The translations under genes and the position numbers were made by a program. The notes beneath the pieces are model-generated. The model had not been told where the DNA came from and did no database searches. It saw only the letters and a list, made by a program, of their open reading frames with translations. A stretch of 63,973 nt of DNA, filler included, from Circinaria calcarea (Eukaryota): NCBI GenBank assembly GCA_051942165.1. It is 3 parts of 3 records of this genome, joined end to end, with 100 filler letters (N's around TTAATTAATTAA, not from the genome) between each part and the next. Parts side by side here need not be neighbours in the genome. Positions count along the whole stretch, not along the records: positions 1 to 22,936 come from JAVECS010000126.1; 2 more parts are not named here. The stretch is one strand, 5' to 3'. The stretch's first letter is position 1; the number at the start of each line of letters is the position of its first letter. Positions 1,290 to 23,381 of the stretch are shown here, piece by piece.

Positions 1290-4200
1290 AATCTTCGCCC
1301 TGCTGTCTCATTATCTTTTTAAAGGCAACAGACTTCGTAAAGGCGTGATATGCTTGCCGTCCAATATAATAAAGGGGTTTTGGAAGGAGCGGCCTATTGT
1401 AAAGCTACGGCGTCACTGTATTGTATCGATGAATGAGTGAGTTCTATTACAACTGCGTGTGTATGGTCTGCTATGCTGCGTGTGTAACGCAGCAGAAGAA
1501 TCTATCTATGTGTGTGGGCACGGGCGGAACAACGTCCGCCCGAGGATCTAACCGCAAAGGTTTGACACCTATCTTCGTATAGCGCAGTTTCACAAACAGG
1601 AGGCAATTAAGCGAAATTACCGAATAGAATAATATCGATGGTCAGGGAAAATCTGCCGAAGCCGCTTATCAATCCACGCCAATTGTGTTAAACCTATCAT
1701 AGATTTTTCATCTATAATCAGAAATCGACAATACTTTTAAGCTGGCTTGTAAAGCTGCCAGGGGGTTTTGTTGTAGCTGATCAAACTCCTTTCTAACAGG
1801 CAGTTTCAAGAGAGAATGCAATGTACAACCCTTAATGTTGTACGCAGCAACACCGGTAGGAGCACAACGTTGAACAGGGTCTGGAAGGTCTGCTTCCATA
1901 GCCCGATGCAGTAAATGCCGAAAAAGTAGATCAGTTAGATAAGACTTACCTGTTCCGGCCACCCCATCGCCATTTAGACCCAGCGGAGGTGGCCGATTCA
2001 GGGGTTCGGCGAGTTCATCTTCATACTACTTCATCACAGCATCGAAGGTCTTCCGCTGCTCCGCTTGGAGTGTATCTGGCGACAGTAATGCTCGAATATC
2101 TTCATCCGGCGGGTGTTCGATTTTGGCCGTTGCCAGAAATCCTTCCGGCGCTGCATATTGTTCATACTCCGCGGCATTGGCATTCCAATCGAAAGCCCTA
2201 TCCATATCACGTCCCCCTAGATCGTCCGGATCTTCTATTCTCGTACCGTCATTCGGCGCCCTTCTGCCGGCGAACTCCTCCCATGCCTGACGTTCCATAT
2301 GAGGCTCTCCTACATCCGATTGGTCCTCGAATTCATCCTCCTCAGAGTTATCTTCGGCTATAGGGTCCAGCGGGTCAGGGTCGTGTACAGGGCAACGGTT
2401 TTTACATAAGGTATAAGCTTCCCGATAGCTATCAACAGGTATAACACGGTTATCGGGACCTCGAAATTCTTCACGTAGATCTTTAATCTTCGTAAAAGGA
2501 TGGTGAAGCATAAGCTTAACCCGGCAGTAGTCTTCGTATTGCTCACCGGTTGGGTCTGCATCGTATAGCGGGAAGAGATTGATGATTCGAGGCGCAGCTC
2601 GTGGCCGGCGTTTCATTTTGGCGAAGTCAAAGTGCCGCAGCATATCCCATAGAGTTAGCCGTGGCCATTCCTGCATATTCCGGCCCATTGGCGTTCTATG
2701 GGTGATTTCCGGGCAACAACCTCTTCATTCTCAACCTCGAAACCAACGTTTTGCTCATTTGGCAGCCGAGCATCGAATGCTAAAACCGTTCGAGAGCCAT
2801 CTTGTAAGGGCAAGCCAAGCGTCAAATGGCATATCTCTTGGGCTGACCAATCCCGTTCGCTAATGAGGCTATTCATAAGCTTGGTGGTAATCGAGATAAG
2901 CGGATGAGTGGCGGAAGCGTGGCTCATCACGTTTTTCAGCATGGAGGTATACGTCGCCGACTTCGTTTCAGCTTTGCTGCAGTATTTGGCGATATATCGG
3001 AGCACTGCATCAGCACTAGTAGGAGGTGTCATATCTGTATTAGCCCCCCAAGCCATCGTACACAAAGGATTGTAGGAATTCAACAGCTCATCGTTTCTAA
3101 CCGGCTCGTAGAGAAAGTGCTTGCTATTCCGATCTGTACTAACGTATGCCTTTTCACTTAACTCCCGAGGGAATTTGAACCGGCACTTTGGTTCCGCATT
3201 CGCGCCAGAGCGTCCTCTCGGCTTCCTGAGGCAGTATCTAGTGGTGCAGACCGTGTGACGTTGAAACCGATTCAGAAGTGCTGTTAAATAATCCTTTGTA
3301 TTCGGCTGTTGGTCGAAAGGTAAACTGGAAGGATGTCTAGCGTCAGGACGTCGAGTCTGATCAGGATTGAAAGCCACGACTTTATCAGCCCAGTAAGCAG
3401 CGAATGCATCCTAGCTTTGATCGGTTCCCATATCCGGCTGAGGGGCGTCGTCGGACCAACCAAACCCATGTATATGACCACTACCCCTTGATTGCCATTC
3501 AAAGCGATACCAATGATCCTTAAGCCCGAACTTCGGCTTCAATACACGCTTGAAAAAAGAGCGGAATCGTCGATTTAGGTACTCCGCGGCGATATGCGGG
3601 TTTTTCTGCAGGTCAATCCTTGACTTCTTCAGCCTAGCCGTCTCGTCAGGGGTCGATTCTTGGTCATTGGCCCCTGGCATATGCTTCCGAAGGTCATGCC
3701 ATTGCAAATCGGCGGCGCTGAAGGTGAAAAAGAGGTTCGGACAACCTATATTTCGAACATAACTCTCGAGCTGACGACGTTTGCTGTTCCAGAACGGTCT
3801 CGTGCCTCGAAGCGTAGCTGCATGGCGGATGATTCTATCCACCAGATGGGTTTCATCATTGTCGTTCAATAGCTCTTTCAGTTCTTCGATAGTCAGGTTG
3901 TTCTCGGTCTGATTCTTCCTAGCAAAGAAAGAACCCTTTTTCCTTGCGGCATCACGCATTAGCCCGTTGAAAGCAACGTAGCGGAACCGTGGGTGCTGGG
4001 CAAACCGGCCATCTTCATACCGCATTAAATGTTGAATGTATTCCTCGTACCGAATAGTTCGTTGCCGGGGGACCTTGAAATCCGCCTGCCCATAGGGGAA
4101 AAGCGTAGGAAACGCCATACGCATTATAGGAATATCGTCCCATTCCGATATAGGGGTGGAGCGGAAATCCGGTGCTGTCAACGGTTGCGGTGCGAGATCC

Positions 4201-5701
4201 TGCCTCATACGTGCTGCCTCGGAATGCCTAGTAGTAAAATTCGGTACAACACCGGTCGTTTCAAGGTCTTGCTCGGGTTGACCATTGATTTCGGTGACGA
4301 TATCATTGATATCACTGATTTGGCCTTGATCGACGGCCTCAGACTGTTCTTCGATCTCCGGTATAAACCGCCGAACACTGCCATCCTCCGGAAGCCTGTT
4401 CAAAGCTTCATCATCGATAGTAATGTTCTGATAGTCCGGGTGATTCTGGCGTAGAAATCGTAGCCATGCCAGAATCGCTGAACGCCGAACCCGAAAGTCT
4501 CTTTCAAATTGGCGTTCGAGCAACGGCTGTTCCCCCTCGGCGGTGTTCCTAGAAGAAGGACGCAGAAGCACAACGTCAAGGTTGGCAGGCAGTAGGGGCA
4601 GGCGATCGTATAGCTTCATGGTATCCTGCATGAAATTGACCGTATGTCCGGAATACTTGTATTGATGCCCACGGACACGCCGAACCTGGACATGTACGTG
4701 AGCTCTGGCAATTAACATCTCTTCCGTCTGCGTCAGAATAGGCAAATGGGCGGGAACAGCACCCAATTCCATGTCATTTTCTCTGGAAATAAGCTTGACA
4801 CGATGCTCGGCTTGAGTGTTGTGCTGATCTTTGTTCTTATCTCTGTCTTTGCATCGATGGCAGACCCTGTCAGTGTCTAATTTCATGTCGAACCATTTTT
4901 CATGACAATGAGAGCAAACCTCCAGTTCCAATTGGTCCATATCATGGCGGAAATTCTCAGCCAGAATCCAGTCTACTGCAGGTATGGCTGGGGCAAAAGC
5001 GTCTGGATCCGCCAATCGTTGGGCTTCGGCAGCAGCTTCATCCAACTGTTCGTTGGCATCATTCAGCATTTGTTCGGCTTGAATAGCTGCAATCCGTGCG
5101 CGGTAACGTTGAGAAACACTCTGCTGATCACGGCATGTATCACACGTTGCATATTCTTCACCGTTCACAATGAACAAATGCCTTGGACGAGTATGATGAC
5201 CGTGTACACAGTATTTCATTTCCTCTTCCTCGTCACCACTATCAACAACGCAGTACACGCATATATTGGGTTCGCCAGCATGCCTAATCAAATCCTCCAA
5301 ACCACGCCGAACGCTGCACAAAGAGCAAACGAAGTAATGTCGAAGACCCCGGGGTGACTGCACCGCAGAGAGAGGATTTATAGAAAGAATACGCCGCAAT
5401 CGTTTCGGCGTTCTGCCAGATCGGGCGAGGAAGGCGAAAAAGGATGAGAGGTAGGATTGGGCTGGCGAGTAGGCCTTGTTGGCGTTGCAGGCAGCCGTGG
5501 TGGGTCAGGCGGAGGATTAGGTGGTAAGTTAGCTTCTTGAGAGGATGGTTGTGAGGGTGTATGGCCACGTTTTATCTGCATAGCTCTTCTTCGATTCTTT
5601 CGTTCTGCTGCCTCTTTGGCCTTGCGTTCCTCTTTCTGCTGTGGTGTTTCTTGACTATCTCTCTCCAGCCGGGCCTCTTTGCGACGTAGAGACCTAGCCA
5701 T
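1290..5701 (-). pseudogene. Helitron RepHel protein (N-terminal basic/Zn-finger region, DUF6570-like, Helitron_like_N, HUH endonuclease, PIF1 helicase), disrupted
   Basis: ORFs 5378-5701, 3411-5399, 2655-3377, 2026-2688 and 1708-1962. In-frame TAG stops at 3411-3413 and 2026-2028, frameshifts near 2690 and 1735, an LTR insertion at 1398-1567, and loss of recognisable helicase motifs below about 1290. Confidence 0.85.
1398..1567. mobile_element. Solo LTR (170 bp) inserted in the Helitron helicase
   Basis: TGTAAA...TTTGACA termini flanked by a perfect 5-bp direct repeat CCTAT (1393-1397, 1568-1572). Removing the insert and one TSD copy restores the helicase reading frame (LPPVCETALYEDRPLLPKPLYYIGRQAY). 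Confidence 0.8.
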
Positions 5702-6456
5702 CTATACGCCAAGTGCCAATCAAAAGGCAATAACAAAGACTTTAAAAAAAGGCCAGAATTAGTGATTGACGAATCCCCGTGGGTTACACACGTATTATAC
5801 CTAGAACAACGGAGAAAAGTCGCGTTTTTTGGGGGAAAAATTGCCAAAATCCATGATTTTTATAGCCCACGGATTAAGATTGGGCCGGAATAGCAAGCTA
5901 ATATCCTCGCCTTTTCAACCAATTAAAAGCTATAGAGGGGGACGGACATTTACGCTAGCTACATTTTTTCGCATGCCAAGTCACTATTTCATTTTTCAGT
6001 CTCCATTATTATTCTCGCTCGCTCCGCTCGCGGAATAAGTAGCGAGCTTGCCACATAGCAGTTCCACAGCCGTTTCATACATTTCAACAAGAGTAATCAA
6101 GTAGCACTAAGAGACAAGGCTTCTTTTGCCTAACTCACCATCCGCACCTACATGTTAGTCGGGCGAACATGCAGATCAAGCGGTGATTCCAATGTAAGGT
6201 AATATTTAGCCTTAACTACCCCACCAACTGAGAACGGATTGCAGCCAATCAGGCTTACAGCATGTAAAGTCTCGACTGAAAACCTATCACACCCTGGGAT
6301 CAGTAGACGCCAGCCTGCCCATACCAGCTGTCCTACGTGACACCATAAATGTACACACTTCTTATATACCTTATCAGAATAGCCAAAGCAGCGTGATAAT
6401 ATCCTCAGATGATATTTTCTAGGAACATCAAATCGATAGCAAGATAAAAACTACAA

Positions 6457-7690
6457 ATGACCGACCTGGAAGTAGCCATTGAAATCGCACGAGAAGCTGT
6501 TCATGCAACTCCAGAAGATCATCCTGACCGGGCAGGACTGTTAAACAGTCTTGGAAATAGACTTCGAGACAGATACTTAAGAACGGGAGCGATGGCTGAC
6601 CTCGAAGAAGCCATTCAAACTGCGCGAGAAGCTGTTCATGCAACTCCAAAAGATCATCCTAGCCGGGCAGGACGGTTAAACAATCTTGGAATTAGAATTC
6701 GAGACAGATACTTAAGAACGGGAGCGATGGCTGACCTGGAAGAAGCCATTCCAATTGCGCGAGAAGCTGTTCATGCAACTCCAGAAGATCATCCTGACCG
6801 GGCAGGACAATTACACAATCTTGGAGCTCAACTTGGAGACAGATACTCAAGAACGGGAGCGATGGCTGACCTGGAAGAAGCTATCCAAATTACGCGAGAA
6901 GCTGTTCATGCAACTCCAGAAGATCATCCTGACCGGGCAGGACGGTTAAACAATCTTGGAGCTAGACTTCGAGACAGATACTCAAGAACGGGAGCGATGG
7001 CTGACCTGGAAGAAGCCATTGAAATTGCGCGAAAAGCTGTTCATGCAACTCCAAAAGATCATCCTGACCGGGCAAGACATTTAAACAATCTTGGAGTTAT
7101 ATTTGGAGACAGATACTTAAGAACGGGAGCGATGGCTGACCTGGAAGAAGCCATTGAAATTGCGCGAAAAGCTGTTCATGCAACTCCAGAAGATCATCCT
7201 GGCCGGGCAGGATATTTGTACAATCTTGGAAATAGATTTGGAGACAGATACTTAAGAACGGGAGCGATGGCTGACCTGGAAGAAGCCATTGAAATTGCGC
7301 GAGAAGCTGTGTATGCAACTCCAGAAGATCATTTTGACCGGGCAAAATTATTAAATAGTCTTGGAGCTAGACTTGGAGACAAATACTCAAGAACGGGAGC
7401 GATGGCTGATCTGGAAGAAGCCATTGAAATTGCGCAAGAAGCTGTTCATACAACTCCAGAAGATCATCCTGACCGGGCAGGACTGTTGAACAATCTTGGA
7501 AATAGACTTGGAGACAGATACTTAAAAACGGGAGCGGTGGCTGACCTGGAAAAGGCCATTCAAATTGCGCGAGAAGCTGTTCATGCAACTCCAGAAGATT
7601 ATCCTGACCGGGCAAGACATTTAAACAATCTTGCAGCTAGACTTGGAGACAGATACTCAAGAACAGGAGCGATGGCTGACCTGGAAAAAG
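6457..7690 (+). repeat. Coding tandem array, 135-nt unit x9 plus a partial tenth
   Basis: Units start at 6457, 6592, 6727, 6862, 6997, 7132, 7267, 7402, 7537 and 7672, with very high nucleotide identity between them. Confidence 0.97.
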
Positions 7691-9474
7691 TTGTATTGTA
7701 TTATCAATCTGCTCTACACCAGTCGAACTCGCCCACCATCGCTCGCATATTAGCCGGCAAAGAGGTTCTTCGATTTTGTGTATTCACTTCTGACTGGCAA
7801 CAAGCTTATAAGGATTCAACTATTGCTGTTAATCTCATTCCAAAACTAGCATTACGATCACTAGAGAATTCCGATAAGCAGCATTTGCTCAGTATGGTAG
7901 TGGGCCTGGCCTGTAACCTAACTGCTGTAGCATTGCAAGTACAAGAAGCGCCGTCAGTTGCGGTAAAACTACTTGAGCAGGGACGCGGTGTACTGGCAAC
8001 ATCTCTCGAGGAAATACGGACGGATATACTCGATCTACAAGGAAGGCATCCAGAGCTAGCAGATCAATTTGTCAGCCTTCGGGACGAATTAGAGCCACCT
8101 GTCACGCGAAATAATACCCTTTTCACAGACGACAATCGCAAGTCTTCCTTGCAGGCGCGAGCAAGTCGGCGTTACGACGCAGGTAAAGAACTCGATAAGC
8201 TGATCTTCGACATTCGCAAACGACCTGGATTCAAGGACTTCTTGCTTCCTCCAAGTGAAAAAGAAATGCAGGCTGCTGCGAGGTGTGGCCCTATTGTCGT
8301 TATCAATGTCAGCGAGTACCGCTGCGATGCGCTACTCGTTGAGCAGCATCAGATACGGTCCCTGGCATTGCCCCATCTCAACAGCAAGGACATCGAGAAG
8401 AAGACACAGAGAGGCCGTCTCGGAAGTCGTGAAATCCTAGAATGGCTATGGGATGCTATTGCAAATCCGATCCTTGATGCTCTTGGATTCACCCAACCTC
8501 CGTCGGGCGAAAGCTGGCCACATGTATGGTGGATTCCTACGGGTCCCCTAAGCAAATTTCCTCTCCATGCGGCTGGGCGTCACGGCGAGGGCTCTACCCA
8601 AACGGTGCTCGATAGGGTCATGTCGTCGTACAGTTCGTCCATCAAGGCGATCATACATGGGCGCCGATCACGCATTCCAGAACCTACGCAATCGGTCCAA
8701 CCCCAGGCGCTCCTTGTCGCTATGAGGGATACTCCGGGACATCGTACGCTTCCTTCTGCAACGGATGAGGTAGCAATAGTACACCATCTTTACAAATCGA
8801 TGGCATTGGATCCTGTCGAGCCGGGGCGGCATAAACAAGATATCGTGTCGCAGTTACCGAATTGCAAGATATTCCACTTTGCTGGTCATGGCCGTACGCA
8901 CGAGTCCGATCCTTCCCAGAGCGATCTACTCCTAGAGGACTGGGAGAGTGACCGCCTCACGGTGGCTAATCTTCTAGAAATGAATCTCCGTGAACGGTCT
9001 CCATTTCTCGCCTACCTCTCGGCTTGCGGGACCGGTCGAATCAATGATGAGAGGTTCGTTGACGAGAGTATCCATCTAATCAGTGCATGTCAGCTGGCTG
9101 GATTTCGGCACGTTATTGGCACTTTGTGGGAGGTCGATGATGACCTTTGCAAAGATATGGCGAAAATCACGTACGAAGAAATAAAGGAAGGGATAAAGGA
9201 CGGGCGCATGACGGATGAATCGGTTTGTCGGGGGCTCCATAAAGCTACCAGGGAGCTTCGAGACCGTTGGTTAAGTGCGCCAGCGAAAACCAAACGCGGA
9301 CGCCGATCGGTCAGAGAAGCAATCACATTTTGGGCACAAAATGAGACCGAGACCCGGGGTGCATGTGATAGAGATGAGAGATATGGTAAATTGCCCAGAG
9401 ACGCTGATTTAGATAGTGAAGATGAAGAGACAGGGCCGACACACTGGGTTCCATACGTTCATTTTGGGGTGTGA
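6457..9474 (+). CDS. TPR-repeat CHAT-domain (caspase/separase-like) protease, 1005 aa, intronless
   Basis: Nine 45-aa TPR-like repeats, then a CHAT domain with PHVWWIPTGPLSKFPLHAAG, catalytic His (FHFAGHG), catalytic Cys (LAYLSACGTG), AGFRHVIGTLWEV and terminal WVPYVHFGV. Confidence 0.92.
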   Translation: MTDLEVAIEIAREAVHATPEDHPDRAGLLNSLGNRLRDRYLRTGAMADLEEAIQTAREAVHATPKDHPSRAGRLNNLGIRIRDRYLRTGAMADLEEAIPIAREAVHATPEDHPDRAGQLHNLGAQLGDRYSRTGAMADLEEAIQITREAVHATPEDHPDRAGRLNNLGARLRDRYSRTGAMADLEEAIEIARKAVHATPKDHPDRARHLNNLGVIFGDRYLRTGAMADLEEAIEIARKAVHATPEDHPGRAGYLYNLGNRFGDRYLRTGAMADLEEAIEIAREAVYATPEDHFDRAKLLNSLGARLGDKYSRTGAMADLEEAIEIAQEAVHTTPEDHPDRAGLLNNLGNRLGDRYLKTGAVADLEKAIQIAREAVHATPEDYPDRARHLNNLAARLGDRYSRTGAMADLEKVVLYYQSALHQSNSPTIARILAGKEVLRFCVFTSDWQQAYKDSTIAVNLIPKLALRSLENSDKQHLLSMVVGLACNLTAVALQVQEAPSVAVKLLEQGRGVLATSLEEIRTDILDLQGRHPELADQFVSLRDELEPPVTRNNTLFTDDNRKSSLQARASRRYDAGKELDKLIFDIRKRPGFKDFLLPPSEKEMQAAARCGPIVVINVSEYRCDALLVEQHQIRSLALPHLNSKDIEKKTQRGRLGSREILEWLWDAIANPILDALGFTQPPSGESWPHVWWIPTGPLSKFPLHAAGRHGEGSTQTVLDRVMSSYSSSIKAIIHGRRSRIPEPTQSVQPQALLVAMRDTPGHRTLPSATDEVAIVHHLYKSMALDPVEPGRHKQDIVSQLPNCKIFHFAGHGRTHESDPSQSDLLLEDWESDRLTVANLLEMNLRERSPFLAYLSACGTGRINDERFVDESIHLISACQLAGFRHVIGTLWEVDDDLCKDMAKITYEEIKEGIKDGRMTDESVCRGLHKATRELRDRWLSAPAKTKRGRRSVREAITFWAQNETETRGACDRDERYGKLPRDADLDSEDEETGPTHWVPYVHFGV

Positions 9475-9517
9475 TTTATCACCAAACTTGCTGCAGATCA
9501 ATTAATTTAGTAGCACG

Positions 9518-11535
9518 CTATAAGTCTATGTCCACGACATCTATATAAGTGCGAATAAAAAAGTTCAGTACAGCCCAGTCTTCCGATGAAGAACCACCGC
9601 CTTCTCGGCCGGGCCTAGTAATCGAGCTCTTCATGAATGATTTACCGAATTTTGGTAGCTCTAATAAGTCGAAGGAAGTCGGCTGAGCAGTGACGAAGAC
9701 CTCTATTATATCATCGCACTGACGATGCCCTTTCTCACATAATTCACGTGGGACCGTCATGGTGAGCTTCATGCTGGATATCACTGTAGAGCCTTGGCCA
9801 TCTTTTCCTGCAGGAATGACTTTGTGATTCGCGCGAAGAAGGTTCTTTACTTGCCAATGGGGTCCCATATCATAGATGTGGAGATAGAGATCCTTGCTTC
9901 CCTTATTTTCTATCACCAGCTTGGGCCTGAGATGTTTTTCCTCGTTGTGTTTCACTTTTACCAAAGACTCCGGCTGAAAGATCCTCCCGGAACAGTCGAT
10001 GATTTGAATGCTAAAAGACTCTCGAAAGGGAATTGCTAGTTCTTTGTTGGCTAGGTTCTTGGCCATTTTGAACTTCACCAAGTGCTCCATTAGATCATAA
10101 ATAAAGCTTGCGTTCGTCTGACCAAGCGTCATGGTTGGGAGATTGACAACCTTTGAGTCAAATTCATCGAGGACTTCATATTCGTTTCACTGTTCAATCG
10201 GATATGAAATGAAAACAGTTCTTCGTCTCTGCCAGCACTGGCACCTAATGACCGTCCTTGCAGAGCCATTAGCCACTCATTCTGATATGGAAGACTGGAA
10301 TCGAGTCTGATCAGAAAGGTCGAAAGGGAACAGCGATTAAGCACCGTTGCGATCCACCCTGTTCGGACTCGGACAGACGTGTCCAGTAGTTCGACATCCG
10401 AAACCAGAGCTCTGGCTTGGGTAACCTTTGCAAGAATGGGGTCGCTTTTTGATCCTAAGTCACGCTCAGCAGAAGCCCAGGGATGCACGGTAAACTGATC
10501 GCCATCATAAATGCCATGCGCCTGGCCAGCTCCTATTTGAAGGCTACCGTCTAGCTTTTTGATGACTGAAACTGGTGCCGAACACATTCCCGGGCTGGCG
10601 GGTCCGAAGAAGGAGAGGGTTTTGTTCCCATACAAAATGGGATTCTGTTCATTTTTGCGTGCCTCCTGGGTCTCCTGGAACCTGGCACATAAGTGACGGT
10701 AGATATTCTGCCGGCTTTCGCGCACATCGCCGAGGTTTTGAAGGCTCCTCAGTAAAAACCAGGATAATACCCCGTGCCGCTGCCCTTCTTCATCCCAGAG
10801 CTCTTTTGCGATTTCCGTGGGTCCGCATGCCGTGAGGATGGTGTAGCCATCCGGATGGACTAGCCAGTTTGGCAGCATGGAAGCATTTCGGTAAACCGGG
10901 CAACTGGCTTTGGTTTTGAGGCTTGATCCAGGGGCCAAACCATATGCTGCAGGAACCTTAGGGTCGTATCTGAGATACCGAGCTGAGGAATCGTCGCGCA
11001 TGACACTTCCAGAAAAGCAGCAGTCCAAAACAAGTGTTACCGTCAATTCTTTACGCACCATATCTCCTATCAAACTCGCCAACTCCAAGCCTTCGAGATA
11101 ACGAGGGTTGGTCCCCGTCGCTCCTTCGAGCAGCACCAGCGCTAGATCTCCCGTGGAGCTATTCGGAATCCTAGTGCCGTGTCCAGAATAGTGAATATAG
11201 ATGAAGTCGCCAGCTTTCGCTCGAGACGACATCTCCTTGAGACTAGAGGTTACATTGCCGTATGTTGGCCACAACTCTGGGCTCTCGTCCGGGCCAGACG
11301 ATTCCGACACTTGGGCTGGATGAGAAGAGTCCAATCTCTCGGCCTGGTGAGAAGAATTCAAGTCATTGGTTGAGGGCGCTGTGAATATTCGAATTTGAGG
11401 AGGTTTCGACATCCCTCTTAGGTATTTTCGGATGTCTCGAACATCTCGCACGCAGCCTTTCAAAGGTTTTTCTGGATAAGCATTAATGCCGATCAAAATC
11501 GCATAATGCGTGGCGTCAGCGTGCTGGTCGTCCAT
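9518..11535 (-). CDS. Caspase-like peptidase C14 domain protein with long C-terminal extension (about 672 aa if the frameshift near 10185 is corrected; may be a pseudogene)
   Basis: HYAILIGINAY..LKGCVRDV, catalytic His (YIHYSGHG), catalytic Cys (VLDCCFSG), LTACGPTEIAKE...HGVLSWFL. ORF 9518-10132 continues the protein after a single-base frame change (..NEYEVLDEFDSKVVNLPTMTLGQ..). Confidence 0.85.
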
Positions 11536-12399
11536 TGCTGTCCGAGTGAGTTCAGCCTCAGGGTGCTTAGGCAAGCGCAGTGCCTGACGGAGGAGCAACT
11601 GCAAGATTAAAGGGCAATGCTAAGCAGCTGTAGCAGCTTACTAACAGAAAACAGAGCCTCCAAAGAAGACGACTGAGCCGAATGATAACCGCGCCTGCAA
11701 AAGGCATCAAGATTCGGTAAGCCCTGCAGGGCGCGGGAAAAGGTACCATAGATTGATTGGGCATTAATTTGTGACAAGGCTACGAACACGAATTCCATAA
11801 ACTTGGGACAGGCTGCAAACTTCCGAAGCCTCGTCGTGTCACCACAGTCGACACGAACCATTAAGCTGCTTCCAATTCTTTCTCCTCGATCTCGTCGCCG
11901 TTCTTGACGGCTTGACCGCTTTCGAGACTAAGAGTGTATACTGCTGCAGAAGGCACAGTCGCAATGACAAAGGGTCCTTCGCGAGATCCACCACCAGAAA
12001 CGCGCAAATACACGTAATCTCCGACCGTAAATCTGCTTATCTGCGAGCTGTCTTAACGCGGTACGCCCTCTTTTAGGCTGGAGCTTGCGAACCTTCATAT
12101 ACGGTATAACCTGAGAGCGGCCGTCATCATCACAGAAGGTAATCTTAGGGCTTTGATCTCTGGTACCAGACGTGAATAACACGATCGACTGCACAAAGCT
12201 AGCATTGCTTACCCTTTAGATTCGGTCATTTTTTTTTAAATTTCCGCTCAGACAGTTTGGCCGCCGTGGATATCAGTTGAGTGACCAATAGTAACCTACT
12301 AAATCATCGTCCATGATAGTGCGGTCTGGAGGGTTCTTTATATACTTCCGGATACCTGGATTTGCTGCCTAAATGCCTTCTAAGACGCCTTATTCCTTC

Positions 12400-12445
12400 T
12401 GCATTTGGGCGTGTGATGCGCATGCATTTGGGCGTGTGATGTGCA
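12400..12445. repeat. 23-bp tandem duplication TGCATTTGGGCGTGTGATG(C/T)GCA in the divergent intergenic region
   Basis: Two adjacent copies with one mismatch. Confidence 0.85.
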
Positions 12446-12637
12446 TGCATGTGGCTTTGCTGCTGTACGAACAGGGTATGCCAGTTACTATCATTCTATC
12501 TCTTGTTGCCTTGATCCTGCGCCCACCTGGCTCGAAATGTGTTATATAAACCCAATTGATAGACCAGAACTCAGTCCCACTTATCTCGTCATGTCTCGCT
12601 GCTCTTTATTTGAAAGATTGCCCTCCAAAAGATTCAG

Positions 12638-13718
12638 ATGGAGTTTTTCAAACCGTGTCTTCCAATTCGGAAACCCTCAGAACCCCTTCTTACAGGTGAA
12701 AAGGAGACGAGACAAAGTACCGATACCTCTTTTTCTAGGAATTGCTGTACTGACCGTACCGAGTCGAGGCTTACATTCCTGGATATCCCCGTTACACGGC
12801 ACTCCTTTCAGCTCATACACCCTTCTTCTTGTGCCGCCGTTTCAACAGGCTCCGCGCTCGTCTCCTTCTATTGAAGCAGGACAAACTGTCTGTTCTTGAG
12901 CAGAGGCTTGACCAGATTGACGAGCAGGAACCTTTTCGTCTCTTCCTCGGCAAGAGCCGGTGCGATGCGAATGCGGACCGATGGTCTCTTTTGTCAGAAA
13001 TTGAATCTTGTCTGGCTGACTACGGTATATTGAAGAGATAAAAGTGAAGTGTTTAAATACTAACGAAATGTAGACCAATTTACGGAAAGGACTCATCGAA
13101 TGCTGGGTTGGGACCCCGCAAAGCCAAGAGATGTACGGAGCCTGCAAAACTGGTTGAATGGCACGGGTTGTCTCGCCAGAGAAGAAGCAGCATACCTCGC
13201 ACATGGCAAAGAGCTGATTTCTTTGGCTCCATCTGGTGATAGTGCTCTGCTGCATCTTGAAGTTTGGGTAGAAGAAAAGTTGATCCGTTTCTATCGAGGG
13301 TTCCGAAAAGTAAGAGAACTCTTACTTGTTAGAGCAAGCTAACAACCGAACGCAGAGCCGTCATTATAATGTCTCTATCGATGCGAACGTGTACCTGTAT
13401 TCTGGCTCTTTGATTAAGCGGTCTGCCAGAGTATTATTGTTATTCTTGATAACTTTCCTGTTGCTAATGCCAGTCGTCATTTGCAACATTATTAGCACTG
13501 TTTCAATTCGGATAATTATTATCATGCTATCCACGATTTCCTATCTGTTCATCCTCTCTGGATTAACCCGATCAAAGACGATAGAGTTGATCCTCGCCGG
13601 AGCAACGTGAGAAATTCCGTTTAGATATGATTAGTAACTGCCAGCTAATGCGACTAATATTAGATATGCTACAGTTCTCGTCGTTTTTATCTCTGGTACC
13701 CGTGGAATTTCGACCTAG
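12638..13718 (+). CDS. DUF6594-like fungal membrane protein (5 exons)
   Basis: Spliced product reads EAYIPGYPRYTALL..FFLCRRFNRLRARLLLLKQDKLSVLEQRLDQID..SLQNWL.. followed by three hydrophobic segments ending AGATYATVLVVFISG. Proposed introns: 12717-12763, 13025-13073, 13310-13355, 13607-13663. Confidence 0.8.
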
Positions 13719-13826: not shown

Positions 13827-15232
13827 TGTTGACAGGGTCGATCATAATTATTTAGTACCACCCTAGTCTGGTTCATAGCAATAACGAAACGATGAAAAGT
13901 GGTGATTAGGACTCCGTGTCACGAGTTCTCCGTGAGACATGGCTGCTCTCCTGAAAATTTCAACATTCCCCCCTGTGTCGAAAAGCATGTAATGGCTTCC
14001 CAAATGCGCAATTCTTATCTTTAAGACTACGATCTACTAGGTGATGTTATAATCGTTCACTGTCGAAGGCCTTTTCTGTTCTGCTTAAAGCGCGCCTACA
14101 CGAAACGTCTATTATTGCGACCGTCTTAGCTCCTTGGTCTCAGGTCGATTCCCTGTTGCGTCTCGAGAAGGACCTGCACCAATTTTAGCAGTACCTGATG
14201 GTCAGAGACCAAGTAGCTAATGCGTGAAATCTCCATATCCACACGCTAACACTTTCGCTCGCGGTTCCCGATCGAGGTCAAAAGCTTCCATGGCAGGCGG
14301 TCGCGTGTCCCCTCGGCAAAGGAGCTTGATATGCATAAGAACCGAGATAGGTCTGTCCAGTTCCTTTCATCCTAACTAAATAAGTGGAAGAGTTGGTATT
14401 GTTGATCTATCGCTTGCGCTCTGATGTATGTAACATATGCGTCCTACACATATGATACACAAAATTTCACCCTCCCAGCTGCAGCCTGGGCATCTTGGGT
14501 GTAATCCTGGGGACTTGAAATACTTATCCTAGATCTCCCTTGCTCGTGATTGAGTTTTTTCATCCATCTTTAGTTGTAGTCTAATACAGCACCACATCTT
14601 GATGGCTTCGGTAATCAGTCTCTCATCATGCAGCTCAAGAGTCACCTTGATTGCAGAGAGGAATAGATTGCTGTATGCCTTCCTGTTCGAGGTAGGGTTT
14701 CATTGCAATGAACTCACCCCCTCCGTCGCTCCGCCGTTTGGCGCTGGCGAAGCCGTATTGGTTTCGAACCATTGGAACGAATATCTTGACCTCTGCGAGG
14801 GCTTGACTCTTCTTAGCCATTGGTATGAACCATTGATGTCAACACCTGTAGCCATTGTAGCTAGCTTCCGTATGTCAGCTGCATTGAAATGACTCAGTCG
14901 ATGGTGCCATAGCTCCAAATTCGGCTTGATAGCCGTCTTGAAGCTGGCATGATTCAGGATTTCTTCAACCATATATCGTGTGGCGTGTGCTTTGCTCAAC
15001 GTCACACAGTAGAGATTGCCTGATTGTGCACCTTCTAGTGCAACCTCGCAGTCATCCAGCAAACGTAGTTATCCATTCTTTCCAAGAAAGCTATACCCTT
15101 TTGCTTCGAAGCTTCCAAGTGATAACAGGTTGCTTTCGAGCTCAGGGCAACAGTCGACCTCCTGATCGACGCCGTCGATTTGGGCGTGTAATGTGATGGT
15201 TCCGAAGCCAGAAGCTCTGATCTTAGAGCCAT
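13827..15232 (-). mobile_element. Truncated, degenerate Ty1/Copia LTR retrotransposon (GAG-pre-integrase/integrase fragments, PPT and putative 3' LTR)
   Basis: GNLYCV...LELWHHRLSHFN (GAG-pre-integrase) and RRSDGGGEF...LEQEGI (rve). On the minus strand a PPT (GGGGGGAA, 13973-13966) is immediately followed by a 139-bp TGTTGA...TCAACA segment (13827-13965). Confidence 0.7.
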
Positions 15233-15349
15233 CTGCGAGGTAGATGTCCTCGTTGCTTTAGATGGATGGTGTGAAATAATGGACGGTAATACAGGGTGGA
15301 ATAGGCTGTATTGGCTATGGTAACTACCAGTCTATGTGTATGGACTTCA

Positions 15350-16000: not shown

Positions 16001-16035
16001 GAAGATGGAGATTTCAAGTCACAACCCGACCCGAT

Positions 16036-16260
16036 CGTCCTGACTTTCCATCCTGACTTCCATCCTAACCTTTCATCCTAACCTTCATCCTAACCTTCAT
16101 CCTAACCTTTTATTTTGACCTTTCCATCCTAAACTTCATCCGGAAATACCATCCTAATCTTCTATCCTAATTTCTAACTCAAATTTACCGTCCTGACTTT
16201 CGACACTGACCCCTCAATCTTAATCTGACTTATAAAATTAATCATCATCCTGACATGACG
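16036..16260. repeat. Degenerate 12-13-nt minisatellite (CATCCTAACCTT / ATCCTGACTT)
   Basis: About 10-12 imperfect copies visible directly. Confidence 0.85.
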
Positions 16261-18774
16261 ACAGCAACATTGGATGGCGGCTTATTATTCTGGTTTGCCA
16301 TCCCGATCCGCGAACTTGACCCTGTGTTCTGAACTACCATCAAAACTATATAACATTCGCAACTTCCGAAAGCGCCTTCAACCACCTCTAAGCCGTCAGT
16401 CGATTAGACGGCGACTTTGTATATCTGTTTAATAATTATAAACGGCTTTGATTAATTCAGGGTCTTCGAACCCGCAATATCCCAGAGAGGATACCAACCT
16501 AGTCATATCTCGGAAACTAGCCCATCTCGACGCGACGGCCACCTAGCCCATAGGTCAACCCGTCGAGAGTTACTGATCTATTATTTATGACTGGCGGACT
16601 TCACATAATAACTGCCAGCGTATAGAGGTCAGCGATGATCATGTAAGAACGCTATATATCGGAAGATGATCTCCCAGTGCATAAAATCGCGATAGCAAAA
16701 CTGACCATTACCACATCTAATACCTAGGAACCGCACGACGAAACTGCGAGAATGCCAAATGCCTCGGAACACCCAAGCCTGATCGAAGGCCAATACGAAG
16801 AAAGGAACCGTCCGGCTGAACCCCAGTAATAGATTGAATACCAGATCTTATACAGTCCATCGCGAATGCAATCCATCGCGAGTAAGGCACGACAAGAGCA
16901 CACTCTACCTACCAGATGAAGGGTTTAACCGCGGTCAAGACAGGAGCCGCCATCATATTTGTTCCCTATAGTGAGCAAGTTGAACAGGACAAGAGCAGGG
17001 CGCCAGGAAGGACTTATCGAACACGCTTCTCAGGCCAAAGGATTTTACTACTTAGGCATGGGCCGTGCCTACATTGCGATTCCAATTGGTTACCGCCGGT
17101 GCTAGCACACGTCAATCGGTCCAGATCTATCTCGAGTTTTCCGACCGATTGTGTAGACTCATCGCCCGCTGCACAGATCAGAAACATATCACAGGTACTA
17201 TATACGTTATGGATAGTGACAGGTCAATGTGCTCATCTTTATAAAAATACATCGATAAAAGTGTCTGAAGGAACCATTATCAGTACTCCGCGACACCGCT
17301 TACGTTTGGGAACAATCAAACGAGGAAAGAATAAGATGCTAACCGCGGTCAGACAACACGAAGCCTACGCCGACCTCGACAGTTCCTTAGGGAGTCCGAC
17401 AAGCCTACGCAGCACCATCCGCTTTCGACCAGAAACACCCTTAAGTGAACCCCTACAGCTAATCCTCACTGCGGTAAAGAGTAACGAATCAAACCTTCAT
17501 AGCTCTAAAAACACGGCGGATTTCTCGACCTTCACTCTTGCCATACCTATAAAATCAAGATAGGAAGGCTAGATACCGACCAGTAATTGCAAGAGTTTCT
17601 ACCGGCCGCTAAACCACATCTCGTAATGCCCCGGCCATCAACAGACCAGCAGACTTGTCTCGGATGGAACATATTTACAGATCTCGAGCTAGAGAAGCAA
17701 AAACATAGGACTAAAAGAACGTCGGAATCTTCGGCGTGCCAACGAGATCCTCTCATCCTTTCTATACACTATGGGGTCACGAATGGGACCACCCTTAATA
17801 GTTCCAAGCATGACGCTCGACTTAAGGCTTTCACGCAATGCCTCGCCAGCACATCAACACTCGATCAATAGAATGGCTTGAGCTATATTACCGGGTAGGT
17901 CGCTTTAGAGCACCAAGTAGGATATAATATCCAACCCGCGGGTCTCGGATCCCATGGCAGTCGGGACCACGAAAGGAAGGAAGCACAGGAGGCGATGCTC
18001 GGAACGGCTGCCACTGGTCAAAACTGGCTAACGTTATAAACCATACCGCGATATAGCACGATAATGCCCACAAAGGTAGTTACAGATTTCTAGAATTTAT
18101 GTCTTGAAGCATGGCAGGAAGGACATATCATCGCATCGATTTGATGTCCTAGATGAGTACGACCAATTACTTAAAGCTTTACACTGAATCAATGCTCGAG
18201 GAACATGATACTTTGCAGATTCTGAAGTGCTCGTTGCATGCTTAGATTGTAAAGGCGCGTGTTCACATATGCATGGCTAATCGCCAATCATCAGTTTCAT
18301 CACTGAGCCAGAGCCTCCTCGAATCCATCACAACTTTGAGATGAGCGAACCGTCGAACTATGAGTGATACCACAGCATCAATAAAAATTACAACAACCCC
18401 CAAGATCTGGTTACAGCGACATTGGCGTATGCAATACCATTAAGTTCTTTCCAATCACAAATCCATGTGCTCTACCCTGCATCTCTACATCTTCCTGCAA
18501 TCTTTACTTTCAACCCCTGTTCCGTTACTCATCACACGGCTTATCCTAGCAAAGCCTCATGCATCCCTCATCAAACATATATTATTCTCGGCCTGTGTAA
18601 GTCCCTCTATCAGATTGTTAATAAACAAACCTCACCAAAAATCTAATCAAAAACGCTAAACTTGTGGTACGCATCACTAACTAAACTCAGAATACCCAAT
18701 CACACATATCATTTGCTCACTTTACCTGAAGAATAACCTATTTATGCAGCATCGGCATCCTGACAAACGAACCT

Positions 18775-19085
18775 GACAGACGGAAGCGAACCGGCTGATT
18801 CGATTCCGTGGCTCCGACACAATCTCCTGACTTTCACCCGACGCGCAAAGTCAGGATACCTACCGACACTCTGCAATAAAGGACAGAAACGAACTGGCTG
18901 ACTCAAATCAGTGGCTTCAATAGAATCTTTTAACTTTCACTTGACGCGCTAAGTGAGATATCAAACGACAGCTTGCAACAACAGACAGGACCGAACTGGC
19001 AGATTCTAGTCTGTGGCTTCGATAGGGTCTTCTGACTTTCAACCACACGCGCAAAATCAGGATATTCAACGAGAACGTGCGGCTG
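18775..19085. repeat. About 102-bp tandem repeat x3, each copy with an internal inverted repeat
   Basis: CGAAC(C/T)GGC cores at 18787, 18890 and 18992. Copy 1 has a perfect stem TCCTGACTTT (18825-18834) / AAAGTCAGGA (18847-18856). Confidence 0.8.
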
Positions 19086-19177
19086 AATTTGCTCACTATT
19101 TATCTCCTCTACACCACACGTCAGCCTAGATCTTCTAACCTTCAAGATTATCAAGAACGAATCGTATCACACCAGAC

Positions 19178-22100
19178 ATGGCCTCTGAAGACGCGAAGTC
19201 CGACGACACGAAAGGAAAGAAGACTACGAGGACAGACCCTCCCCCAGAGATTGCCGAATACAGCACCGAATGGTACGATTGGTGGTTGGAACATTCTCCA
19301 AAGACTTGGCCAGAATGGCTTTCGAGAGATGGCTTGGGTCTCACCGCCAACTTGCTGAAGAATATCAAGAGCCGGGCAACAGGTCTCTTGACAGAAGAGG
19401 TTGCGGGCAAAAAATTGAAGGGCCACACTGCGCAGCTAGAGTTGAAGGCGGCCGACGACGAACTGGAGAAGGACTTCGGCAGCAGAGTCAAGGAGTTGAG
19501 GCCGTGGGTCACGCATGGCTTCAGACAGAAATGTTGGAGGGCCTTTACGACCCATCAGAAAGCCATGAGAACAAGACCTAATTCCAACCTATCGAAACTG
19601 TCCAGTACCAAGCCAATATATAGGCACAGCGATGATCAAAAGCCATCAGAAAAAGCATCCTCAAGCCATTTACCTGCGAAGATCGAAGGACCCAGATACT
19701 CGAACCAGTCCAAGGATCCCCTGAACCAGCCTACGACCTTTTCAAAACCTCGCGCACGCTCCAACTCATTTCCCCGTAGAAGAGCATTGCCTAAAGAAGT
19801 CCACGTCGAAGGCAGCTACTACGAATGGCCCTCTTGGAATGACACGCCTAACCGCGCCCCTGTGGTGCAAAAAAAGGGAAAAAGATCCTCGGTGGCCGCA
19901 GACCTCGACAGCTACAAAGACGATGAATCAAGGGAAACCGCACTAAGGTTCCACCTGCGTTGGAGTTTCGAAAACAAGAGGAGGAAGCTGATAGTGGAAG
20001 AAGAACAACAATATGGTACCACGGGAAGAACTAACATGATGCCTGAGCCAACAAGTAGCGAGCTAAACGAAGAAAGACAACAGCACGAACTAGTTGCAGT
20101 GAGCCAAAAGATGCAAGAGACTACGGATTTGACGGATGAAGAAAAATTGATTTTAGACGGCGTAGCGGAAGAAGAAGAGGTAGACGCGGAGACGTTGTAA
20201 GTCGTTATCAGCCCGAAAAAGACAGTGCGTGCTAAAATACACCAAAGGATGCAGTCCTTGCTCAACGGCACTAAATGTGAGCAGTGCGACCCACGACAAT
20301 GGAAGTTAACTGTCGATTTTTGGGGCTGGACGGAGGCAACCGAGAAGAGGATGCAAATGAGCCCGACCGCCGCCTTCAAGTTACCAGGGATGAAGTCAGC
20401 ACTCCGCAGTACTCAAATCCATGCTATCACGTGGATGTTGTACCAAGGCGCAGGTCTTTGTGGAGGTGGGTTCTTATGTGACCGAATGGGATTCGGAAAG
20501 GTTTGCTACCTATTCAGTATCATTACCTTCAAGACTCACACAATTGCAGACGATCGTTATCCTCGGCAAGATGAGAGTGGAATGGTTAATCGCGAAGGCA
20601 TGCATGGACGTGATCGCCACCGAAGACTCCGAAGGTCATAATGGTCACGCCCCACCCCAAGCAAGGAAAGACGTACGATACGCAAGGACATTACCGCAGT
20701 GCACGCACTACAGAAAACACGTAGTGCCTTGTCCTTGCTCTTCAGCATCACCTACATGGTTGCAACGAGGACAGACCGGTGCTAATGTGATTTTCGCCTC
20801 CAAGACACTTATCGATGTTTGGGTGCAAAATTGGCGCGAACATAATATGGGTACGAATGATGAAATGGTTTTGTTAATAGGGCATGAGACAAAGGCGAAG
20901 GGGTTTGAGAATTTTGGACGGAAACACGCGAAACTCCTTGTAACAAATAAAAAAGGAAGAAGTACATGGTTCCAGAAGAAGTTTGTGATCCTAACCACTC
21001 ATGAGTCCTATAATACCCACGTCATGAAATACTTCCAAGGGCTTAAGAAAAAGGAGGACGTTGATTTAAATACGATACCTCGCAATACTTCATCGGACTA
21101 CGACAGAATGGTTAAAAAATACGAAGAAGATATGCTCTGCCCGTTCAAGCCATCCAACACCTACTCAGATGAATTCCACAAAATGCACGCGGAGGGTAGA
21201 GGTTTGCCAAATCGTTTGAAGGCAATGCAGACGAGGACGTGGTCACCGAAAGTTTGGGGGCTGTCAGGGACGCCATTTAAAGACGGCCCGGGCGGGTTAA
21301 GAGGATATCTTGATGTCATGTATCGAAAGCAATGGGACACCGACGAGAAGTACATGCATCTAACTCCCACGGCGCTCGAGACTCTGCAAAAGAATATAGA
21401 CGCTGCAATCAAGGAAGCCAACACGCACCAGATCGTCGAATTGGGCCAGGTTTTCGAGTTGAGAGTATTACAAAGTTGCATGATCCGGAGGAATGAAAAT
21501 TCCGAGTGGTTTGGCAAGCCCGCACTGCCATTGCCCCCGGTCACCGTCCACGAGATCAAAACGCCCATCTCCATAGAGTTCAAGGAGTCGGTCGCGGAAC
21601 TGAATGCGGAAAGGCTACAAAAAATGCATAAGTCGATGAACAAGTTAAACGGCAAGCAGAAACGTAGCACCACTCTCTCGACTCTACCGTCCCTGGCGAC
21701 CTTTATCGAGCACTCAAGGGCACTGAGACATATCGCTGTCTGGCCCTACTTAATAGAGATGCTGCGGACGGAGTCAGTAACCCTTACTCTAGAGGACTTC
21801 CGAAAACCGAAGGACGCCCACTCCACTTGGAAAAACGCTTATGCTACGAACATCGGCACCCTCATGAAAACTTCTCCACGATTCAAAGGAGTAGTAAGGA
21901 CTATTAAGTCGTTGCCCAAGGATAAGGAAGGCAAAGAACGCAAGGTGGCCATATATTCAGATAACGCCGTAAGCGCAGGCATTGCATACGAGGTACTTAA
22001 TGCAGGAACTCCTATCCTCTGTTGATGCGTGACTCTTCTCGCTAATATACGCAGGCGTTTGAAAAACTGTGGCCAGGAAAGACAGCCTTCTTCAAAAGCG

Positions 22101-22459
22101 CAACGACAAATAAAGTCCGAACCAAGCTACGAGCGTGGTTCCAAGAGGAGTTAGATGAGGACGGCGAGTTGTTATACGCTCATCCTCCGAGATTCTGGAT
22201 AGGAACCACTGGAGTGGGAGCGGAAGGTCTGGACCTGCAGAAAGCCAGTGTCATTATGTTACTGGAGCCATTCCTCGATCCTCGAAATGAGCAGCAGGTG
22301 ATCGGAAGAGCTTGGCGGGGAGGCCAGGTGAATAACGTCCTTGTGTACAAGTTCTACAGTCCGGACGATGACACAGAAAAGGCCGTGAGGAATAAAGCAG
22401 ATAGAAGGGCCTTGTTGGAAGCATCAACTCACACCAAATTGGTGGAGGAAATTGATTAA
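19178..22459 (+). CDS. Divergent SNF2-family (SF2) ATPase/helicase, 4 exons
   Basis: LRSTQIHAITWM..GGFLCDRMGFGK|T (motif I), YSDEFH (II), WGLSGTPF (III), CMIRR, GAEGLDLQKAS..LLEP...NEQQVIGRAWRGGQ (V/VI). GT-AG introns at 20197-20247, 20501-20549 and 21993-22054 keep the frame open. Confidence 0.85.
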
Positions 22460-22721
22460 AATTAGTTAGTAAATATTTAATCAAAAACTGAACACCAAAT
22501 AGTATATTGCAAATTCGATCATCGAGTAGCCCGAGATAAGTTTACTAACCCGATAGCTCATCAAGAGGCCAATATTTTAACAGAGCCTAAAATAAAAATT
22601 CTTAAAACACTACAGCATGACCACAAGCCATAATAGCAAGCATATAGCCGGAGAATAGAGAGAATTATTAAAGAGCAAGATTGGTTTCTCGAGCAATGCA
22701 CGGTTTCTATTTCTAACCTCA

Positions 22722-22785
22722 CATTTTGACCGAAATCCTGACCCATTCTCTGACCCAGATCCTGACCCAGATCCTGACCGAAATC
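22722..22785. repeat. 12-nt minisatellite ATCCTGACCCAG (about 5 imperfect copies)
   Basis: TTTTGACCGAA ATCCTGACCCATT CTCTGACCCAG ATCCTGACCCAG ATCCTGACCGAA. Confidence 0.8.
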
Positions 22786-22936
22786 TCGCGGAGTCATAGA
22801 GCACATTTGTGGCGTGAGCGCTGGTAGGCACATGCCAGCAAAAGCCCAAGATAGAGTTTTGAGAGACGGGGCAAGATATCTAATATCATGGTTTCTATAT
22901 AATCTCTCGGTTCTTCATCAGTCCCCGCTTCCCCTC

Positions 22937-23036
22937 NNNNNNNNNNNNNNNNNNNNNNNNNNNNNNNNNNNNNNNNNNNNTTAATTAATTAANNNNNNNN
23001 NNNNNNNNNNNNNNNNNNNNNNNNNNNNNNNNNNNN
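22937..23036. other. Artificial contig linker (N44-TTAATTAATTAA-N44)
   Basis: All-frame stop spacer embedded in Ns. Confidence 0.98.
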
Positions 23037-23375: not shown

Positions 23376-23381
23376 GATTGC

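Follow-up and report, generated by a model that had tools for sequence, protein, structure and literature searches.

Nine closely similar TPR units with recurrently variable helix positions precede the protease domain of a NOD-less TPR-CHAT protein in Circinaria calcarea

A stretch of 63,973 nucleotides from Circinaria calcarea (assembly GCA_051942165.1), made of three parts joined by filler and called the window in what follows, carries on its plus strand a gene at positions 6457..9474 in which nine tetratricopeptide repeat (TPR) units of 45 residues are followed by a CHAT protease domain. The units are alike over most of their length and differ repeatedly at the same few positions. The question raised by this locus is whether such an array acts as a modular receptor that recombination can reprogram, or whether its pattern has a different origin. 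The answer that we favour, and consider probable, is that the nine repeats act as a sensor or regulatory domain at the N-terminus of a TPR-CHAT protease of fungi that has no nucleotide-binding oligomerization domain (NOD), and that the groove of this domain is diversified. The original prediction of a modular receptor fused to a protease is largely right with regard to the architecture, the homogenisation of the units and the groove positions; the evidence for selection is partial, and the novelty was overrated, as repeat-fused CHAT proteases and highly conserved TPR arrays have already been published. The more novel result is the conserved context of the gene, a fungal cluster with C14 peptidase and DUF6594 genes.

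The gene is an uninterrupted open reading frame (ORF) of 1005 codons in which a helical linker connects a TPR_10 array to a CHAT protease, as read from the ORF list and from Pfam. An in-frame stop codon at 6445-6447 is located just upstream of the first ATG, and the frame opens at 6448, 9 nt before it. Pfam recognizes TPR_10 in the 1005-residue product with 173.9 bits in nine stretches, TPR-S with 47.2 bits, and CHAT (PF12770) with 114.1 bits against a gathering cut-off of 24, and finds no NACHT or NB-ARC domain. The array is thus fused directly to the protease in a single ORF, as had been proposed. The nine units of 135 nt occupy 6457..7671, as defined by Tandem Repeats Finder, the translations, nhmmer and the secondary structure assigned by DSSP on the model described below. 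A degenerate tenth unit and a non-repetitive helical linker, delimited by the profile match and the model, extend over residues 406 to ~658 (7672..8430). The CHAT caspase-fold domain, supported by Pfam and Foldseek, covers residues 659-961 (8431..9339). His811 in the motif FHFAGHG (codon 8887..8889) and Cys857 in YLSACGTG (codon 9025..9027) are at least 90% conserved among the 72 relatives of alignment A1; we take them to be the catalytic dyad, an assignment derived from the caspase-fold motifs His-Gly and SACG. The linker between the array and the CHAT domain is likewise well conserved in this alignment.

The full-length AlphaFold2 model, which is based on alignment A1, has a mean predicted local distance difference test score (pLDDT) of 84.3 and a predicted template modelling score (pTM) of 0.82, with a pLDDT of ~94 across the array. 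In each unit, helix B spans in-repeat positions 2-17, a loop comprises positions 18-24, and a long helix A extends over positions 25-43; helices continue in the linker from residue 406 to 610. The identity of the array as TPR_10-type is confirmed by the profile match, by the two helices per unit in the model, and by the TPRs of the kinesin light chains KLC1 and KLC2 as the nearest solved sequence relatives.

A search of structural homologues of the full-length model with Foldseek returned Csx29, the TPR-CHAT protein of the type III-E CRISPR system 'Craspase' (8eey_B, E = 2.9e-14), and separase (9hn5_A, E = 4.2e-12) as the top matches in the Protein Data Bank. The top matches to these two proteins have E values of 2.9e-14 to 1e-11 and a probability of 1.00, with modest template modelling scores of 0.24-0.45 when normalised to the target and 0.31-0.35 when normalised to the query. 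In both proteins, as in the window protein, a helical or TPR part precedes a caspase-fold protease. By contrast, sequence identity amounts to just 12-14%. The TPRs of Csx29 are few and diverged, and the protein is under the control of an RNA-guided complex, whereas the window gene has no CRISPR context.

The array is a single one in the window, reported by Tandem Repeats Finder at 6463-7690 with a period of 135, 9.1 copies, 89% matches and no indels. The window contains exactly nine full units according to nhmmer, and no upstream repeat remnant, longer ORF or other array copy was found in it. The tenth unit keeps its first six codons (MADLEK) and then diverges, its first 16 profile positions being matched. 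Nucleotide identity between units is 88.7% on average (range 83-93%), and amino-acid identity 78% on average with a maximum of 87%. The description of the units as nearly identical even at synonymous sites is somewhat too strong because the synonymous difference among units amounts to 0.106 per site. The residues listed for in-repeat positions 27-28, 30-31, 34-35, 37 and 41 match the nine translated units exactly.

Homogenisation within the array is evident from the comparison with other loci. The nearest relative of every unit lies inside its own array (9/9), and identity to the closest other array, that of locus L002, is 76.5% on average and 83.0% at most, compared with the within-array mean of 88.7%. 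Unequal crossing-over or gene conversion within the array appears to keep the units alike, in the manner of concerted evolution. Of the 97 family proteins in which four or more units could be scored, only 8 reach a mean unit identity of 0.69 or higher; most lie at 0.25-0.45, with units that are old and diverged.

Unit number and order are read here from a sequence that resembles a short-read scaffold, and the array might then be a young tandem amplification or a mis-assembled repeat whose pattern carries no functional meaning. We regard this as very improbable. The ORF is intact across the nine units and free of indels, the units differ by 7-17%, which is enough to tell them apart, and of the 54 arrays scored in independent metagenome loci at least 18 show comparable homogenisation, with the same positions variable. 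What speaks for such an origin are four runs of exactly 44 N in the window (22937-22980, 22993-23036, 45644-45687 and 45700-45743), which form two pairs with a 12-nt gap each and fall at the filler joints between parts, and a contig of a related sequencing run that joins position 7008 to 7687, so assemblers can take other paths through arrays of this kind.

The eight codons singled out as variable correspond to in-repeat positions 27, 28, 30, 31, 34, 35, 37 and 41 of 45, all within the predicted long helix A. Over the 36 unit pairs, the Nei-Gojobori (NG86) ratio of non-synonymous to synonymous rates (dN/dS, or omega) is 1.09 for the whole unit, 2.24 for the eight listed codons and 0.74 for the other 37. 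The variants also differ in kind: at the eight codons 12/19 are common to several units and 8/19 are transversions, whereas outside them 28/34 are singletons and 27/34 are transitions. By minimum counts, 19.5 of 42.5 non-synonymous changes fall within these 8 of 45 codons (binomial p = 9e-6), a test that is post hoc because the sites were picked from the same data. Per-column omega values, obtained by simple minimum-change counting with the pooled synonymous rate as baseline, reach 7.8 at position 28 (p = 2e-4) and ~3.4 at positions 34 and 35 (p ~0.06). Arg, Tyr and Trp are frequent among the residues at positions 28 and 35, and exposed positions of helix B are far less variable than those of helix A.

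Repeat-induced point mutation (RIP) was considered as the origin of the variation and rejected: 6/19 of the C>T or G>A variants outside the eight sites lie in a CpA/TpG context by eye count, which gives no clear signature. At position 41, the alternation of Leu and Ser (TTA/TCA in the window) recurs in the nearest relatives L002 and L001/L003, and distant arrays use E, K or Q instead. This dimorphism may be old, common to the relatives and carried along by unit exchange.

The pattern was further analyzed in other arrays. A metagenome scan gave 80 related loci with DNA, of which 54 contain at least four clean units and 18 show at least 74% nucleotide identity between units. Locus L064, identical to L062, was left out of the comparison of 17 other arrays, in which the near-duplicates L001 and L003 were both kept; the pool of 16 arrays omits L003 and L064. 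In this out-of-sample comparison, the non-synonymous difference per site (pN) at the eight codons exceeds that at the other 37 in 17/17 homogenised arrays. Pooled omega over 16 arrays is above the neutral value at position 27 (2.1, p = 7e-8), position 28 (1.85, p = 2e-5) and position 34 (1.6, p = 0.001). It is marginal at position 35 (1.29) and at position 38 (1.33), which was not among the listed sites; at positions 30, 31, 37 and 41 it is 0.58-0.99, and all remaining positions have values of at most 1.05. The expectation of a dN/dS above 1 at the listed sites is thus borne out in the window at position 28 and in the pool at 27, 28 and 34, is marginal at 35, and fails at 30, 31, 37 and 41, where the ratio is at or below 1.

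The placement of the variable sites on one helical face receives a similarly divided answer. The variability moment on the helical wheel reaches significance in the pool of 16 arrays (p = 0.0024), where it points 128 degrees away from the hydrophobic moment, but not in the window taken by itself (p = 0.26). For the protein sequences, the entropy profile of the window is correlated with the average profile of seven further homogenised arrays (rho 0.43, p 0.003). In five actinobacterial arrays the most variable positions are 27, 34, 24, 28, 35, 37 and 38, with a Spearman rho of 0.71 against the fungal profile. Position-specific variability is therefore a family trait, seen at the same positions in the 17 other arrays and in the five actinobacterial ones; it is a standing property of which the window is a good example and no new principle. 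The evidence for diversifying selection at the listed sites, as judged from substitution ratios, is partial.

The likely location of these positions in the folded array is indicated by its nearest solved sequence relatives, the TPRs of KLC1 and KLC2 (E = 1.9e-9), in which the LNNL motif is in register. According to the available portion of PMC6214655, the cargo peptide binds to the concave surface of KLC1 and contacts K340, N343, N344, L347, L348, N351, N301 and N302, and further V305, K309, Y313, N259 and R266. These residues align to in-repeat positions 27, 30, 31, 34, 35, 37, 38 and 42, with K340 at 27, N343/N301/N259 at 30, N344/N302 at 31, V305/L347 at 34, L348 at 35, R266 at 37 and K309/N351 at 38; the residue letters were checked for V305, K309, Y313, R266, K340 and N343/N344, and L347, L348 and N351 were extrapolated by the 42-residue period. 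By this alignment, six of the eight listed sites coincide with groove-contact positions of the nearest solved relative. In accord with this register, the variable sites are placed on the exposed side of the groove-lining helix.

The window array and the KLC TPR domain (KLC1/KLC2; PDB codes 7ai4, 6fuz and 3edt) have the motif DHPD...LNNLG...Y in common, and KLC binds its cargo in the concave groove through residues aligned with positions 27, 30, 31, 34, 35, 37 and 38, in the contacts reported in the same text. The two differ in that the KLC unit has 42 residues, the three additional residues of the window unit being located in the loop after helix B, and in that KLC has six diverged repeats, no protease and another biological role.

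Several observations weigh against a sensor domain with a diversified groove. The placement of the variable residues on the concave side relies on the KLC alignment. Within the window alone, individual significance is limited to position 28 and the helical-face test fails. The mean amino-acid identity of 78% lies below the 85% threshold for high internal conservation given in the accessible text of Dyrka et al. (PMC4986451), and at the edge of the 80-100% range in that of PMC13449251. Omega at the eight codons is >1 in only 6/17 other arrays, and the pooled values at positions 30, 31, 37 and 41 were given above. Finally, the close alleles or species L001 and L003, which are ~96% identical unit by unit, keep their 15 units in the same order, and only 11/45 of their non-synonymous differences fall at the eight sites, with 45 non-synonymous and 29 synonymous differences overall.

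Part of this evidence would be expected under concerted evolution with relaxed constraint, in which the exposed helix-A positions vary through tolerance and not through ligand-driven selection. The values of omega below 1 at the eight sites in 11/17 other arrays, the pooled 0.58-0.99 at four of these sites, the weak concentration of the L001/L003 differences and an overall omega of ~1.09 for the window array and of 0.67 for the pool are all compatible with it. Nevertheless, we consider it unlikely, as tolerance does not readily account for pooled ratios of 1.6-2.1 at positions 27, 28 and 34 (p from 0.001 down to 7e-8), for an omega >1 at the eight sites in 7/9 of the most homogenised arrays, the window included, for exposed helix-B positions that are much less variable than those of helix A, for the enrichment of Arg, Tyr and Trp at positions 28 and 35, or for the variation of the same positions in actinobacteria.

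Under the favoured reading, the units would form a TPR superhelix in which unequal crossing-over or gene conversion maintains the likeness of the units while exposed helix-A residues, chiefly at positions 27, 28, 34 and 35 and in relatives also at 38, would stay diverse from unit to unit. Because the variable residues correspond to those lining the ligand groove of the nearest solved TPR, each array would offer a composite binding surface. Ligand binding at this surface may in turn control the activation of the CHAT protease. The likely partners in the subfamily of the window protein would be the products of the neighbouring genes described below, a metacaspase-like C14 protease and a DUF6594 membrane protein, instead of the gasdermin of its counterpart in Podospora, and these would be the candidates to consider as substrates. 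A role in cell death or immunity is what we infer from such an arrangement.

The strategy has precedents in fungi. The available parts of PMC4986451 and PMC13449251 describe fungal NOD-like receptors (NLRs) in which TPR, ANK and WD40 repeats show high internal conservation together with concave, variable and positively selected sites, and in which repeat-number polymorphism is established. A close parallel is provided by the TPRs with high internal conservation in the NB-ARC and NACHT NLRs of Podospora anserina (Dyrka et al. 2014, PMC4986451; PMC13449251), which are likewise TPR_10-type units very similar within a gene, with variable sites on the concave side and concerted evolution, matched in the window by the 9/9 units nearest to their own array. 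The window protein differs from these NLRs by the lack of a NOD, by its N-terminal repeats and C-terminal CHAT effector, by a unit of 45 residues compared with 42 for the Pfam TPR_10 profile and the KLC spacing, and by the mean identity below the published threshold mentioned above. Fungal immune-like receptors have been studied mainly as NLRs; if the favoured reading holds, NOD-less sensor-proteases would use the same strategy of near-identical repeats and a diversified groove, and this strategy would be a lasting feature of a family that numbers more than 2000 proteins and that fungi share with actinobacteria.

The extent of this family was assessed with two queries. The C-terminal half of the protein retrieves >2000 relatives, essentially all of them Pezizomycotina proteins annotated as 'CHAT domain-containing' or 'TPR repeat', and family members contain 1 to 22 units with a normal period of 45 residues. 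The array alone retrieves CHAT proteins in 115 of the 120 matches listed, and neither PF00931 nor PF05729 is present among these 120. No NOD domain is found in 119/120 of the relatives listed. Three proteins deviate in their architecture. In P0252, among the 120 listed for the array, the TPR-CHAT part is preceded by an NPHP3_N P-loop part and a winged-helix domain; P0290 combines the same TPR module with a HET domain instead of CHAT; and P0064, a match of the C-terminal half, has NACHT_N only, without NACHT. Outside the fungi, TPR-CHAT proteins of actinobacteria (Streptomyces, Nocardia, Frankia and others; loci L081-L093) are ~50% identical to the fungal array. Their period is 45 in 13/14 loci, and one array has a mean unit identity of 0.70. 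Judged from these sequences, an old shared origin or a transfer between actinobacteria and Pezizomycotina would fit.

The number of units differs among relatives. Very close pairs of loci have equal numbers in 5/5 cases (L001/L003, L056/L060, L065/L067, L066/L072 and L023/L025), whereas moderately close sister pairs differ in 3/3 (14 units in L002 and 10 in L007; 9 in L035 and 7 in L046; 10 in L020 and 6 in L027). Unit number thus changes among relatives, but the equal numbers of the very close pairs give no indication of fast shuffling. Reprogramming of this gene by recombination, as proposed, may be regarded as plausible. The relationships of the loci are those of a quick tree.

A single related DNA sequencing run was found (word share 0.08), and no RNA run is among the matches listed. 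Its contigs along 5400-13700 are short and 85-95% alike to the window, and several bins are uncovered. The contig joint from 7008 to 7687, which skips 678 nt or ~five units, was considered as a case of repeat-number polymorphism and discarded as too weak, with a depth of 2.9 and a side of 30 letters. Over 5400-12050, the differences from the window base to the contig of the related rock metagenome (run X1) are biased, with 77 C>T and 66 G>A compared with 28 T>C and 38 A>G, which represents RIP-like or AT-biased divergence in the relative.

The gene next to the TPR-CHAT gene, at 9518..11604 on the minus strand, encodes a C14 peptidase of metacaspase-like type whose C-terminal part is beta-rich (Pfam Peptidase_C14, 60 bits), and is arranged convergently, tail to tail, with it. 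The fold of the homologue P0122 consists of a metacaspase-like domain followed by beta-rich domains, and its structural matches are metacaspases, GSU0716 and MALT1; DUF4384 is suggested for the C-terminal 204 residues of the C14 product by an Atlas lead only. In the window, a frame break within a short A/T run at about 10184-10187 splits this gene into ORFs of 491 and 204 residues. Its relatives have one uninterrupted ORF of about 640-690 residues, and the related metagenome contig has one T more at the break. Either the frame of the gene is truly shifted, or the assembly is in error.

The third gene, at 12754..13610 on the plus strand, is oriented head to head (divergently) with the C14 gene and encodes a DUF6594 protein in three exon-like pieces, all of them recognized by Pfam and covering profile positions 1-86, 98-155 and 155-232. 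The C-terminal part of the protein is hydrophobic, as read from its translation.

The neighbourhood is conserved. In the fetched flanks of the 80 related metagenome loci, searched with a C14-family profile, a C14-family gene is present in 43/80, and in 20/35 of those with at least 5 kb on both sides; beside L043, Pfam found a C14 domain that had been missed by tblastn. Many loci have the same layout as the window, with the TPR-CHAT and C14 genes convergent and 50-400 nt between the gene ends. DUF6594 is found in 23/43 C14-bearing loci compared with 0/37 others (Fisher p = 2e-8), and the TPR-CHAT and C14 genes have consecutive locus tags in Cudoniella, Clarireedia and Monosporascus. On the quick tree, the linkage to C14 is spread over the CHAT tree except for one clade of 14 loci.

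Three features of this neighbourhood have to be added to the points on the adverse side. Because the C14 gene of the window is frame-broken, the cluster may not be functional here. Among the well-flanked loci, 15/35 have no C14 gene, including the clade of 14 loci. Lastly, none of the 14 actinobacterial loci has a C14 gene within 8 kb (0/14).

The conserved neighbours also suggest a different function for the groove, which might bind a partner encoded by the cluster, such as a peptide of C14 or DUF6594, or the protein's own linker, so that the array would be a scaffold for autoinhibition or assembly instead of sensing foreign or non-self molecules. The helical or TPR parts of Csx29 and separase, the two fold matches returned by Foldseek, hold partner proteins, and this precedent agrees with such a function, as does the conservation of the C14 and DUF6594 neighbourhood itself. 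A conserved partner, however, is not expected to favour contact residues that are diverse from unit to unit or an omega >1, and the actinobacterial relatives vary at the same positions without a C14 neighbour. Moreover, in locus L018 the C14 and DUF6594 proteins, 69% and 87% identical to those of the window, are accompanied by a distant TPR-CHAT paralogue (~51% identity in the CHAT domain) in another orientation. A groove dedicated to a cluster-encoded partner is, in our judgement, quite improbable.

In L018, next to the C14 and DUF6594 genes that are the closest relatives of those in the window, the TPR-CHAT gene is only distantly paralogous and has the opposite relative orientation, which suggests that the sensor-protease partner may be swappable beside a stable C14-DUF6594 pair.

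For fungal proteins that control gasdermins, PMC8851545, PMC12881547 and PMC10197012 describe proteases fused directly to TPR, ANK or WD40 repeats with no NOD, among them TPR-CHAT proteins encoded beside gasdermins, and the hetB incompatibility determinant of Aspergillus fumigatus is, by the accessible account in PMC11138114, a CHAT protein. A published counterpart of the window locus is Q2L-6 (Pa_6_6610, HET-Q2-like) of Podospora anserina, a TPR-CHAT protein that cleaves the neighbouring gasdermin Q1-6 according to Clave et al. (2022, PMC8851545). Both genes are clustered with their presumed downstream partners. In the published description, the CHAT domain of Q2L-6 comprises residues 701-1005, and the window protein likewise ends at residue 1005; homogenised repeats or variable sites are not mentioned in the passages on Q2L-6. 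The loci differ in their neighbours, C14 and DUF6594 in the window, where Pfam finds no gasdermin in the ORFs of at least 60 residues within 1-20 kb, with the proviso that Pfam may miss fungal gasdermins. Nor did Pfam detect a gasdermin in the clade without C14, for which 42 ORFs neighbouring five of its loci were searched.

We tentatively propose, as a possibility that remains doubtful, that TPR-CHAT, C14 (with its DUF4384-like C-terminus) and DUF6594 constitute a three-gene module of Pezizomycotina for cell death or immunity that has not been described before. In it, a NOD-less sensor-protease with diversified repeats would trigger a cascade of two proteases that has a membrane protein as its end point. 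No paper on DUF6594 (PF20237) or on a TPR-CHAT, C14 and DUF6594 cluster was found in a limited literature search. If true, the proposal would establish a three-gene module parallel to the gasdermin clusters, with a 45-residue TPR-CHAT part that is shared with actinobacteria. The link to C14 and DUF6594 offers a concrete candidate pathway for the many TPR-CHAT genes without an adjacent gasdermin, and the cluster gives a first functional lead for DUF6594.

The surroundings of the TPR-CHAT gene include fungal aconitase and P450 fragments with introns, as well as Helitron and Copia remnants. The Helitron remnant, at 1711-5504 on the minus strand and ~1 kb upstream of the TPR-CHAT gene, consists of Helitron_like_N, DUF6570 and a piece of PIF1 helicase distributed over several ORFs. 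Copia-type fragments (gag_pre-integrs and Pol_BBD) are located at 14703-15331 on the minus strand, just past the DUF6594 gene; transposon remains therefore flank the three-gene cluster on both sides. Further downstream, the region 16001-24000 displays a strand asymmetry, with an AT skew of 0.11-0.22 and a GC skew down to -0.16, which coincides with long ORFs at 19178-20200 and 20421-22025 that have no Pfam match.

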